Virus record (IMG/VR): IMGVR_UViG_2861048470_000006
Source: a virus
Taxonomy: Duplodnaviria > Heunggongvirae > Uroviricota > Caudoviricetes
Strand: one strand, 5' to 3'
Length of the DNA: 57,518 bases
The first letter of the stretch is position 1. Each line of letters starts with the position of its first letter. The notes below the pieces were generated by a model. It did not search any database. It had not been told where the DNA came from and saw nothing but the letters and a program-made list of their open reading frames with translations. The position numbers were made by a program, and so were the translations under genes. Below are positions 30,041-52,759 of this stretch, in pieces.

Positions 30041-30115
<75 letters not shown>

Positions 30116-30118
30116 ATA

Positions 30119-30194
<76 letters not shown>

Positions 30195-35719: not shown

Positions 35720-35875
35720 TTACTCCTCAGGTTCGTAAGCTGTGAAGACAGCGACCTCCGTCTGGCCGGTTCGGATTCGTACCTCGCAGAGGTCTTTCCT
35801 CGTTACCAGTGCCGTCACTATGACGGTTAAACAGATGACGATCAGGGCGATTAACATCGCCTTTTGCTGCTTCAT
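35720..35875 (-). CDS. hokD: Hok-family type I toxin
   Basis: 51-aa product MKQQKAMLIALIVICLTVIVTALVTRKDLCEVRIRTGQTEVAVFTAYEPEE matches Hok/RelF as recalled; track ORF extends upstream in frame. Confidence 0.9.
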   Translation of the reverse strand: MKQQKAMLIALIVICLTVIVTALVTRKDLCEVRIRTGQTEVAVFTAYEPEE

Positions 35876-36086
35876 AGCCTGCTTCTCCTTGCCTTTCGGC
35901 ACGTAAGAGGCTAACCTAGATTTGCCGTTCATAGATTGAGCCTCAGATTAATGTTAAGCGTCTTGCAGGACGCGTAATGTTAACTGGGGCTTTTCTCTAT
36001 CTGCCTTTGGTGTTCATGCCTGAGACAGATAGCCTCAAGCACCCGCAGCCATTCTACTTAACTCCCGTTACCTCGCCAATATAAAA

Positions 36087-46770: not shown

Positions 46771-48974
<2,204 letters not shown>

Positions 48975-50156: not shown

Positions 50157-50582
50157 TCAATGTACTGCCACAGCATTTCCTGCCGGGCCACCACGGTTCA
50201 TCTGATTGAAACCGGCGATTGCCACTGCGACAAAATCATCAGCGTCTCTCACCAGTCGCTCCCGCGTCTCCACCAGCTCCCGAAAATAAGCTGAACTGTG
50301 GCTGCGCATTCTGGCCACCAGCAAAGGTGGCATTGCCTTTTCGATCGCTGGTAACAACGCCTGAATTTTTTCAACTGCATCAGGGGTGTCTTTCTCTACC
50401 CAGCGGAAAATTTTCTGGGTATTGCGAGCCAGGGCTTCCGGATGGCTGTCGTCATACAGTTCCGGGAACGTCATTCCCAGCTCGAAATACGCTTTGGTAA
50501 TTTTCGCAGCCGGTACTTTTTCGCCGTCCGGATGCGCCCAGGCATTCATCGCCATGCGGATGTGTTCATGCTTGATTTTCAT
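50157..50582 (-). CDS. hypothetical early-region protein (CII/YdaT-position)
   Basis: 141-aa ORF directly downstream of cro-like gene with 4-nt overlap; no motif recognised. Confidence 0.35.
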   Translation of the reverse strand: MKIKHEHIRMAMNAWAHPDGEKVPAAKITKAYFELGMTFPELYDDSHPEALARNTQKIFRWVEKDTPDAVEKIQALLPAIEKAMPPLLVARMRSHSSAYFRELVETRERLVRDADDFVAVAIAGFNQMNRGGPAGNAVAVH

Positions 50583-50794
50583 GAATCATTCTTTCCTTCG
50601 TTCGAGGTGCTATCCTGCTTCTTGTAAAGTTCTGGGTTGTATTTCAATTCACCGTTAGTAATTTCATCCAGTTCCATTGCGCGAAGTTTGGGAATAACTG
50701 CTTTCCACCGCACAACAGCCACATGTGAAATTCCAAGAGCCTCAGCTACTAGTCGCTTTTTTTTGAAATAGCGCAGAACATCATCTTTGAACAT
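50579..50794 (-). CDS. Cro-like HTH regulator
   Basis: 71-aa ORF divergent from cI-like gene; HTH segment LVAEALGISHVAVVRWK. Confidence 0.6.
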   Translation of the reverse strand: MFKDDVLRYFKKKRLVAEALGISHVAVVRWKAVIPKLRAMELDEITNGELKYNPELYKKQDSTSNEGKNDS

Positions 50795-50823
50795 AAAACT
50801 CTCCTGTTATTTCGAGCAGGATG

Positions 50824-50885
50824 GTAACAATAGTTACATAGCAATGTCAACCATAGCAACATCACTTGGTAGTAACATTGGTTAC
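50824..50885. promoter_or_regulatory. two operator-like 14-bp sites GTAAC-N4-GTTAC in the cro/cI divergent intergenic region
   Basis: GTAACaataGTTAC (50824-50837) and GTAACattgGTTAC (50872-50885), the latter abutting the cI ATG. Confidence 0.45.
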
Positions 50886-51560
50886 ATGAAAAACACTATC
50901 AGCGAACGTATTCGGAATCGTCGAAAAGACGTTGGATTAACCCAACAGCAGGTTGCGAAAGCAATCGGCATATCTCGTGTATCCGTAACAAAATGGGAAA
51001 ATGGCTCTTCAAAACCTGACGGTGAGAATTTGCATCTACTGTCAAAATTGCTTTCCAAATCTCCTGAATGGATTCTTTATGGAAAGGACGGTCACGATAA
51101 AACCGATGATCTGCGTCTGAATCAGTATCCTTACATTAGTGACAACATCGCCCGGTTGCCCGTTTTAACGTGGGAACAGGCTGGTTATTGGGATATGAGT
51201 TGTCCAGTAACCGAGATTCCTGGCATTAAGAATTGGGTTGATGTCATGACAAAAACCGCTGAAAACTCTTTTTTATTGCATGTTGAGGGAGATGCGATGA
51301 CAAACTCTAACGGCCTCCCAACCATCCCCGATGGATCTACCGTGCTGATCACACCATGCTCAAGTAACATTAGAGAACTGGTGGGAAAAATAATCTTAAT
51401 CCAATTGGAAGGAACGCCAAACGTAACACTAAAAAAAGTTGCGATTGACGGACCAAACATCTATCTGTTGTCACTGAATCCGCTTTACAAACCCATCGAA
51501 CTGAATGGTGGTTACACCATTAAAGGTAAAGTTTCACAAATACATCAATACTTAGACTGA
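50886..51560 (+). CDS. CI-like repressor (N-terminal XRE HTH, C-terminal S24 LexA-like peptidase)
   Basis: start at MKNTISERIRN... (ATG 50886); HTH LTQQQVAKAIGISRVSVTKWE; C-terminal S24-like region. Confidence 0.8.
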   Translation: MKNTISERIRNRRKDVGLTQQQVAKAIGISRVSVTKWENGSSKPDGENLHLLSKLLSKSPEWILYGKDGHDKTDDLRLNQYPYISDNIARLPVLTWEQAGYWDMSCPVTEIPGIKNWVDVMTKTAENSFLLHVEGDAMTNSNGLPTIPDGSTVLITPCSSNIRELVGKIILIQLEGTPNVTLKKVAIDGPNIYLLSLNPLYKPIELNGGYTIKGKVSQIHQYLD

Positions 51561-51832
51561 GTCAGAACCCGCATTCATTGCGGGTTTTTCACGCTCTCAA
51601 ATGTACCTTTTGCAACATCGTATTGACTCGAAAGGTAACTCTTGTTACCTTAACGGCATACCAACCCACCCCGCCCCACAGAATGCAGGGCAATACTTCG
51701 AGTTACCAGGCAGTGGTCAGGGGTTAAGTAGCCAGCCCGAGGCGTAAGAACATGACGGCAGGGTTCAACTTTAATAACTATGCAGCAGGTTTTTGTTCCG
51801 CTACCCCGGCGTTAAGGGGAAATGAGGTCAGC

Positions 51833-51988
51833 ATGGATACTATCGATCTTGGCAACAGCGAATCTCTGGTATGTGGCGTGTTCCCCAACCAGGACGGTAC
51901 GTTCACCGCGATGACGTATACCAAAAGCAAAACGTTTAAAACCGAAAATGGTGCCCGTCGCTGGCTGGAAAGAAACTCAGGTGAGTGA
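51833..51988 (+). CDS. small protein YdfA-like
   Basis: 51-aa ORF from internal ATG with GAGG RBS; first gene of the dicB operon by position. Confidence 0.5.
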   Translation: MDTIDLGNSESLVCGVFPNQDGTFTAMTYTKSKTFKTENGARRWLERNSGE

Positions 51989-51989
51989 T

Positions 51990-52118
51990 ATGGATTTCGA
52001 CACAATCATGGAAAAGGCTTACGAAGAATACTTCGAAGGTCTTGCCGAAGGCGAAGAAGTTCTCAGCTTCAGTGAGTTTAAACAGGCGCTTTCCAGTTCG
52101 GCAAAATCTAACGGCTGA
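51990..52118 (+). CDS. small acidic protein YdfB-like (42 aa)
   Basis: hand-translated MDFDTIMEKAYEEYFEGLAEGEEVLSFSEFKQALSSSAKSNG; starts 2 nt after previous stop. Confidence 0.4.
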   Translation: MDFDTIMEKAYEEYFEGLAEGEEVLSFSEFKQALSSSAKSNG

Positions 52119-52147
52119 TAAGCGAAACAGCACCGCGAGGAATCAGT

Positions 52148-52366
52148 ATGCAGAAACGAGAACCCGTCATCATCGCGCCAGACTATACCGATGATGAACT
52201 TTATGAGTGGATGCACCAGAAAATTAATGCAGCGCAGGATCTGAAATGGGCCAATGAAGCCAGGGCTAAGCAGGCTGAAAATCTGTCCGCTCTGGAGCAG
52301 GATATCACCAATCTGGAAAAAGCAGCGGCATTAAGCATTGCCAGAATGATTACATACCCGCGTTAA
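52148..52366 (+). CDS. small protein YdfC-like
   Basis: 72-aa track ORF. Confidence 0.5.
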   Translation: MQKREPVIIAPDYTDDELYEWMHQKINAAQDLKWANEARAKQAENLSALEQDITNLEKAAALSIARMITYPR

Positions 52367-52706
52367 TAGCTAACCAACGAAGCTAAGGTTGGTAATTAAG
52401 GAGTTCTCCACGGGTGAGGTGGAGTGCGTGCGCCGGACACGGGTGAGCATCCGGCACTGACAGTTTACTGAAAGGATATTTCCCTGAAAAGTCAGACCAT
52501 AACGCGAAAGCGCACGGCGAGGTAGCTGGTTCATAGATAGCCTGTTGTTAAATTTTCGTCGACCGTGCGCTTCCGGTTGTGGCAATCCGCGAAATGGCGC
52601 GGCGGTAAGTATGGCGGGGCTATTCCTTCCCCGTTGAGGACACCGGGTTGTCAGGTTGACCATACGCTTAAGTGACAACCCCGCTGCAACGCCCTCTGTT
52701 ATCAAT

Positions 52707-52759
52707 TTTCTGGTGACGTTTGGCGGTATCAGTTTTACTCCGTGACTGCTCTGCCGCCC
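52707..52759 (+). ncRNA. dicF: DicF small RNA (ftsZ-targeting sRNA)
   Basis: 53-nt TTTCTGGTGACGTTTGGCGGTATCAGTTTTACTCCGTGACTGCTCTGCCGCCC matches DicF as recalled, followed by TTTTT; immediately upstream of dicB. Confidence 0.8.

Follow-up and report, generated by a model that had tools for sequence, protein, structure and literature searches.

The palindromes of the form GTAAC-N4-GTTAC that are described here lie in an Escherichia coli prophage recorded as IMG/VR virus IMGVR_UViG_2861048470_000006 (Caudoviricetes), of which the whole stretch of 57,518 bp (the window) was analysed. Two of them, GTAACaataGTTAC/GTAACAATAGTTAC at positions 50824-50837 and GTAACattgGTTAC/GTAACATTGGTTAC at 50872-50885, match this form exactly and are situated 48 bp apart in the divergent intergenic region of 91 bp that separates the start of a cro-like gene (50794, minus strand) from the ATG of the repressor gene. 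This ATG, at 50886, directly follows the second palindrome. With a probability of roughly 0.85, the two sites represent the right operators OR1 and OR3 of a P22-type (immC-like) switch in a lambdoid prophage at the E. coli Qin locus. The original prediction made on this DNA had proposed both 14-mers as candidate operators of a CI-like repressor in the cro/cI divergent region, with the second one ending on the base before the cI ATG. Their positions and spacing are borne out by the sequence, with 50886 as the true start, and the comparisons reported below support their assignment as operators. The prediction had, however, seen only these two sites, and this set was incomplete, as the switch appears to consist of OR1, a weak OR2, OR3 and the left operators OL1 and OL2. 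P22 also proved to be a closer model than lambda, whose PRM had been named for comparison.

The chance expectation for GTAAC-N4-GTTAC was determined in 100 dinucleotide-preserving shuffles of the window. Three exact copies were present in the window against 0.00 in the shuffles. The third, GTAACtcttGTTAC/GTAACTCTTGTTAC, was found at 51635-51648, 75 nt beyond the repressor stop codon, by the search for further copies of the 14-mer that had been suggested in the original prediction, and it lies at the putative promoter of the leftward operon. When one mismatch was allowed, just three more sites appeared, which were scattered, with ~0.9 expected by chance. Locus L106 (41.7 kb), which covers the window from ~30.1 kb onward together with the prophage's int end and host flank, contained no further exact copy. 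All three exact sites fall within an immunity cassette of ~1.07 kb. A weight matrix trained on distant relatives alone was used to score 57,501 window positions. The four highest scores were those of OR1 (24.3 bits), the OL1-equivalent third copy (22.0), OR3 (20.0) and the segment 51603-51616 (12.6). The latter, GTACCttttGCAAC, is degenerate and is assigned as an OL2-equivalent auxiliary operator; at the corresponding position the relatives have GTAACaataGGTAC or GTAACttatGGAAC, and in one locus (L109) the site is perfect. The operator consensus, derived for 18-bp sites, reads A-T/G-GTAAC-N4(A/T-rich)-GTTAC-A/C-T, and in this form OR1 extends from 50822 to 50839.

A genome scan yielded 20 species-level loci with repressors 43-53% identical to that of the window, belonging to Yersinia, Erwinia, Edwardsiella, Buttiauxella, Kluyvera, Rahnella, Arsenophonus and other genera. 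The repressor start could be placed in 19 of them. A site ending at -1 of the repressor ATG was present in 18 of these 19 loci and was a perfect GTAAC-N4-GTTAC save for one mismatch in a single locus (L001). A second site, mostly GTAACaaaaGGTAC, was located exactly 48 bp upstream in 17 of those loci, which corresponds to -62 from the ATG. Behind the repressor gene, one to three sites with 0-1 mismatch were found within 125 nt of the stop codon in 16 of the 19 loci, and in most of the distant loci these were preceded by TTGAC(A/C)-N6. Homologous Cro proteins with a Shine-Dalgarno sequence were encoded in 18 of the 20 relative loci, at an intergenic distance of 91-93 bp. The same layout was observed in relatives of 67-90% identity and in phages ZF40 and AH07. 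The ATG-adjoining site has its counterpart in the 67-90% relatives (in one of them with a mismatched half, GTAACCTTAATTAC), in ZF40 and AH07, and also in coliphage mEp390 and the Stx-type phage Lys8385Vzw.

In mEp390 and Lys8385Vzw the sites have the sequence GTAGG-N4-CCTAC. They nevertheless occupy the same positions as in the window, i.e. adjoining the ATG, ~48 bp upstream, midway between these two, and behind TTGACA after the gene. Their repressor, ~39-42% identical to that of the window, and their Cro are homologous, and both recognition helices differ: NRVTVTGWE in the repressor compared with SRVSVTKWE in the window, and S/K-H-x-S-V-S-G/E-W in Cro compared with SH[PV]AV[CV]RW in the GTAAC class. 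The GTAGG class is presumably heteroimmune to the window switch. P22 and imm21, with the repressor helix SNVAISQWE, have sites of the form TTAAG-N4-CTTAA; imm21 (phage DE3) was considered as a further specificity class and rejected, as it belongs to the P22 class. Helix and half-site thus change together at constant geometry. Of the evidence available short of binding experiments, this argues most strongly that the palindromes are operators, and as the three sites are conserved in position and covary, they are read as the putative operators of the repressor and Cro. The GTAGG-N4-CCTAC sister class is present in Stx2c-type phages, and apparently no characterization of it exists in the searchable literature.

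The positions of the sites relative to promoter elements are in agreement with such a function. A PR-like promoter was predicted on the minus strand at 50821-50850, consisting of TTGACA (50850-50845), an 18-nt spacer and a TG-extended TACCAT (50826-50821), with a start at ~50812-50814. It was the sole promoter called by the scanner in 50500-51900 (10 of 12 matches plus the upstream TG). Its hexamer positions are conserved in the relatives, where the -10 is TACCTT in 22 of 28 cases and TACCAT in two, the window included. OR1 fills the PR spacer and -10. On the plus strand a PL-like promoter, the equivalent of dicBp, can be read from the sequence at 51623-51651, with TTGACT (51623-51628), a 17-nt spacer and a TG-extended TACCTT (51646-51651), and a start predicted at ~51657-51659. 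OL1, the position of which is conserved, lies in the PL spacer and -10. The register of PL (TTGAC-N6-operator) is that of PR and of the relatives, in which the -10 is TACATT in 18 cases and TACCTT in five. A candidate -10 for the repressor promoter PRM, TAACAT, is situated on the plus strand within OR3 at 50873-50878 (-13 to -8), with a predicted start at 50884-50886. The pattern TAnnnT was present 7 nt before the ATG in all 28 ATG-adjacent sites (TAACAT 24, TAGGAT 2, TAACCT 1, TAACGT 1), compared with one of 28 O1 sites and two of 23 OL1 sites at the corresponding hexamer. PL and PRM were thus assigned by register, conservation and P22 homology.

The repressor gene (50886-51560, plus strand) encodes 224 amino acids with an N-terminal HTH_3 domain (E 2e-16), which contains the helix SRVSVTKWE, and a C-terminal Peptidase_S24-like domain (E 9.5e-17) that has no catalytic serine. 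The closest match among phage repressors is just ~43% identical. Among solved structures, the nearest helix-turn-helix domain is the N-domain of P22 c2 (E 2.6e-12), and the lambda cI full-length structure (3bdn) matches with E 4.6e-14. The cro-like gene (50579-50794, minus strand; 71 amino acids) belongs to the P22_Cro family (PF14549, E 2.9e-16) and has a Shine-Dalgarno sequence AGGAG at ~50800-50805; the next leftward open reading frame past cro, at the place of cII, is YdaT-like.

P22 immC (c2, cro, OR1-OR3 and OL1-OL3) has the same repressor domain layout and a Cro of the P22_Cro family, and coliphage 21 is of the same class. The palindromic 5-N4-5 cores within 18-bp sites are also the same. 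In P22 the cores of the OR sites begin at -64, -41 and -16, and in the window at -62, -39 and -14, so that the spacings of 23 and 25 bp are identical and all window sites are 2 bp nearer to the ATG. The experimentally defined OR1-3 of P22 are annotated as abutting c2, with OR3 at the repressor start codon as in the window. The P22 PRM -10, TAAGAT, is found at the same place in OR3 as TAACAT in the window, and its annotated 5' end lies 4 nt before the c2 ATG. Operators behind PL follow the repressor gene in both. The two systems differ in the half-site (GTAAC versus TTAAG), in the recognition helix (SRVSVTKWE versus SNVAISQWE), in the length of the intergenic region (91 versus 80 bp), in the number of recognizable OL sites (two versus OL1-OL3), and in the motif GDAM, which lacks the catalytic serine, versus GDSM in P22. 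Moreover, the -35 of PR overlaps OR2 and its -10 overlaps OR1 in the window, whereas the P22 -35 lies between OR2 and OR3. The window switch has the architecture of P22 immC and lacks one defining feature of self-cleaving S24 repressors. Lambda is also organized with divergent PR and PRM promoters, three operators and an OL set beyond cI (PMC6649833). It shares the divergent promoter pair, the three operator positions and the logic of a weak OR2 with the window, but its operators are 17 bp long and of another sequence, its Cro has a different fold, its cI is only distantly similar to the window repressor and keeps Ser149, and its OR3 is positioned upstream of the PRM -10 instead of over the -10 and start point.

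A candidate weak OR2, TCAACcataGCAAC, is located at 50847-50860, i.e. at -39 from the ATG, with its left half overlapping the PR -35. The middle position was not part of the training set of the matrix. In 18 of 22 loci the third-best intergenic matrix hit nevertheless fell exactly on -39, and in most relatives this site (CAAACaacaGTTAC) scores 7-11.7 bits, above the 99.9th percentile of the background. The window OR2 itself scores ~-2.5 (rank 96 of 57,501) and falls at the pre-specified position. In the GTAGG class the right half of this site is CCTAC. In lambdoid phages that have been studied closely, intrinsic affinity decreases in the order OR1 > OR3 > OR2, so that a weak OR2 is normal, and its cooperative filling from OR1 is the rule (PMC3317979). 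The degenerate OR2 of the window, which is separated from OR1 by 23 bp and from OR3 by 25 bp, would probably be filled in this way, as in P22 and lambda. The segment between OR1 and OR3 also contains a direct repeat, CATAGCAA(T/C)(G/A)TCA, with a distance of 15 bp (50837-50864). This repeat, CATAGCAAnnTCA at 50837-50849 and 50852-50864, was rejected as a separate element, since the relatives do not conserve it and the PR -35 and OR2 account for most of it. In addition, the 3-4 bases that directly follow OR1 (~50840-50843) are hypervariable across 80 near-identical contigs in which the operators are almost invariant.

Several points weigh against the reading of the region as a complete P22-type switch. 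The scanner called neither PL nor PRM. For PL this is because its -10 matches in only three of six positions, and the candidate PRM is without a recognizable -35, a poor PRM -35 being found in P22 and lambda as well. In the searchable literature no binding or transcript data were found for the GTAAC repressor class, nor any characterization of GTAAC/GTTAC operators, those of ZF40 and Cro half-sites included (one older half-site compilation lies outside this search). The presumed non-cleavability of the repressor is deduced from a single residue. The near-consensus sequence of OR3 suggests an unusually strong autorepression, although matrix scores are not affinities. Finally, the window OR2 is poor, with six of ten core matches, and close relatives differ in its drifting right half (GCAAC, ACAAC, GTGAC, GTAAC and GGTAC), so that in the window it may be non-functional.

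These last observations would also be accounted for by a right region with two operators only, in which OR2 is absent and independent dimers bind, one on PR and one on PRM. The degenerate middle position with its drifting right half in the window and close relatives, as well as the low matrix score, are what such an arrangement predicts, and the 48 bp between OR1 and OR3 represent ~4.6 helical turns, which is unfavourable to a direct contact between dimers. It is harder to reconcile with the rank of the -39 position as third-best hit in 18 of 22 loci and its percentile in most relatives, and with a right half that covaries with the specificity class at the position of P22 OR2. Besides, a weak and cooperatively filled OR2 is the norm in lambdoid phages. 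The two-operator arrangement is therefore regarded as improbable, though it deserves to be taken seriously, and a switch with three right operators is preferred.

Alternatively, the main reader of the sites might be the Cro-like protein or some other factor of the prophage or host, and not the S24-type repressor. As the Cro helices covary with the site class too, covariation alone cannot separate Cro from the repressor. However, SRVSVTKWE was found in 68 of 72 homologs with a readable helix and the other four differ at one residue only, the repressor helix shifts with the half-site in the GTAGG class, and the annotated C2-binding sites of P22 are at the same positions. This makes it quite unlikely that the repressor is not a main reader. 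Sites that are common to repressor and Cro are the standard design in lambdoid phages (PMC6649833).

The assignment of OR3 as a promoter-proximal operator depends on the start of the repressor gene. PGAP/RefSeq and other (metagenome) gene callers place it at ATG 50844, which results in a protein of 238 amino acids. If this were correct the second site would be intragenic and could act as a roadblock or intragenic operator. An in-frame ATG at -42 is present in some relatives as well. Yet the upstream extension is conserved solely as 'N-I-G-Y', which is operator DNA in translation, and distant homologs have ~219 amino acids. All of 16 homologs have the Met at 50886. In 13 of 29 loci the frame is closed by a stop codon 21-81 nt upstream (in 11 of these at 21-42 nt), and no start codon lies between this stop and the conserved ATG. 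No usable Shine-Dalgarno sequence was found at -20 to -4 of the repressor ATG in any of the 29 loci, motif matches being confined to ~12-20 nt upstream, whereas every cro in the comparison has one. Because of the invariant Met, the upstream stops and the lack of a usable Shine-Dalgarno sequence, a start at 50844 is considered very improbable. On this comparison the RefSeq start is 14 codons too long, the extension being mostly operator DNA read as protein, and the true start is at 50886.

This has a consequence for the repressor mRNA. In the best reading it would start at 50884-50886, and thus be leaderless or have a leader of 0-2 nt, and be translated without a Shine-Dalgarno sequence. The expectation in the original prediction of a leaderless or very short-leader cI transcript agrees with the lack of such a sequence and with the conserved TAnnnT in OR3. 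In lambda, too, the repressor mRNA begins at the AUG or adjacent to it and is translated without a Shine-Dalgarno sequence. That the palindromes would have arisen by chance and be without function can be dismissed, as, apart from the fact that short palindromes do arise at random, nothing is in its favour and it is already refuted by the shuffles (three found, 0.00 expected), by positions that agree to the single base pair among loci whose repressors share 43-53% identity, and by the matrix ranking.

From the sequence, its statistics, the positional conservation, the covariation and the overlap with promoter elements a mechanism can be proposed, in which binding, transcript starts, cooperativity, autoregulation and non-cleavability are deduced. 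The repressor, with its P22-c2-like helix-turn-helix domain and its S24-like oligomerization domain, would bind the 18-bp sites as a dimer. Occupancy of OR1 would block PR and so keep cro, the YdaT/cII-like gene and the replication genes switched off. OL1, aided by the weaker OL2, would block PL and the operon ydfA-ydfC-dicF-dicB-exonuclease-xis-int. As OR3 overlaps the putative PRM -10 and start, a high level of repressor or Cro would shut off repressor synthesis, the P22-Cro-like protein reading the same sites as the repressor. The off-switch would not be self-cleavage of the repressor, since its S24 nucleophile is replaced by alanine.

This replacement was examined further by alignment. Ala137 (in GDAM; codon GCG at 51294-51296) aligns with Ser149 of lambda cI (G-N-S-M, 3bdn). 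The catalytic lysine is kept, as the first Lys of TLKKV, invariant in the homolog alignment, aligns with lambda Lys192 (FTFKKL). The Ala-Gly cleavage site is also kept (WEQAGYW compared with HVQAGMF in lambda), QAG being conserved in the homologs. A scan of viral contigs gave 80 loci at 98-100% identity, which were uninformative for footprinting and were used for a census of the alanine and for polymorphism. The GCG codon was present in all 80. Alanine was also found in P0002 (90% identity) and in P0005 of Salmonella (70%), and serine in P0003 (88%) and P0006 (67%); serine is kept in 72 of 76 homologs with a readable motif. Slilaty and Little reportedly established in 1987 that LexA needs Ser119 and Lys156 and that a Ser-to-Ala replacement abolishes self-cleavage. 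As the nucleophile is an alanine, RecA-stimulated self-cleavage of the window repressor is not expected, and DNA damage probably cannot induce the prophage by that route. The claim of the original prediction that the S24 domain makes the prophage SOS-inducible is therefore not supported, and a Pfam hit to S24 alone fails as a predictor of SOS inducibility here. The S24 fold presumably still provides dimerization and cooperativity. Nothing relevant to natural Ser-to-Ala repressors was found in the literature search. In mechanistic terms the switch is ordinary, and mildly surprising only in its loss of the nucleophile. A tentative explanation, which is not the likeliest course of events, is that the switch is 'locked', a nucleophile-less P22-type lineage, present in ~700 complete E. 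coli genomes and still equipped with the cleavage site, the catalytic Lys and near-consensus operators at PR, PL and its own start codon, having been retained as a non-cleavable guardian that silences the toxic dicBF cell-division-inhibitor operon. If so, induction would take place via an antirepressor, via Cro-driven bistability, or by in-trans cleavage by an active repressor of a co-resident prophage.

A LexA-box-like sequence is present in the PR leader, TCCTGttatttcgagCAGGA (50802-50821), in which CTG-N10-CAG has one mismatch to CTGT-N8-ACAG. It also forms a 5-bp inverted repeat that spans the cro Shine-Dalgarno sequence and the predicted PR start. Control by LexA via CTG-N10-CAG at 50804-50819 was considered and rejected, as the core has one mismatch, ~18 such sequences are expected by chance in each window and distant relatives do not conserve it. 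It is probably due to chance.

An identical RefSeq copy of the element is situated beside rspB-rspA-ynfA, which is the Qin prophage locus, and to the right of the repressor it contains DUF1391 (ydfA-like), ydfC, dicB, DUF1482, exonuclease, xis and int. The DicF small RNA is found in the operon behind OL1 at 52708-52759 (plus strand; Rfam, 76.7 bits). At least 80% of a query of 1.7 kb is carried by 698 of 5,426 complete E. coli genomes, i.e. roughly one in eight. In sequenced phages the flanks of this query match, whereas the ~1.07 kb that comprises cro, the intergenic region, the repressor, the terminator and the third site differs. As the flanks alone match, this segment is, to judge from the sequences compared, a replaceable immunity cassette. 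The terminator is a predicted intrinsic one directly after the repressor gene (51564-51589, plus strand), with a GC-rich hairpin followed by a T-run. The RNA fold of 51556-51600 has -18 kcal/mol (z = -5.1), and equivalent hairpins are visible in relatives. An Rfam scan of 50400-52400 at a permissive threshold gave just a sub-threshold Trp_leader match, which is this terminator, and thus no explanation of the region by an RNA element.

K-12 Qin, with DicA and DicC, occupies the same chromosomal locus (at the rspB-ynfA side) and has the same operon ydfA-ydfC-dicF-dicB. DicA and DicC form a cI/Cro-like pair with operators at dicCp and dicBp, the latter promoter being upstream of ydfA; DicA, with 135 amino acids, lacks a cleavage domain at its C-terminus and is opposed by the antirepressor Rem, and K-12 Qin flips via Rem and by spontaneous DicC-dependent switching (PMC10448788). 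The window repressor, in contrast to the short DicA, is a c2-like protein of 224 amino acids with an S24-like domain, and hence is not of the DicA type. The window cassette is an alternative immunity allele at the Qin locus and not a homolog of the DicA/DicC set.

An untranslated block of ~115 nt (51656-51772) directly follows OL1/PL. Several E. coli phages that are otherwise heteroimmune have it with 93-95% conservation, and distant relatives keep it in part ('...aagtagcc...ggcgta.gaa...'). No Rfam match was obtained for this block, which may be a leader, a nut-like element or a processing element of the dicBF-type operon. Elsewhere in the prophage a sok antitoxin RNA and two tRNA genes were observed at 35870-36044 (minus strand) and 30044-30194 (minus strand). 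Beside the replication genes, an IS21-family istA open reading frame (47609-48631, minus strand) abuts a truncated DUF977-like one (48645-48974). In the otherwise identical prophage of strain 120899 (L106) this spot is occupied by IS100 and IS3, which are arranged differently. Replication of the element is probably defective.

These findings leave the accepted view of lambdoid switches as it is; their use lies in annotation and in a third point in a specificity series. The operator code and complete site map are defined for an uncharacterized and very common immunity type with relatives across the Enterobacterales, phages ZF40 and AH07 among them. A natural series for the co-evolution of the recognition helices of repressor and Cro with their operators is formed by three homologous specificity classes of identical geometry (P22/21, GTAGG and GTAAC). 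For the host, the switch would matter because its repressor is predicted to control DicF and DicB, which affect cell division.

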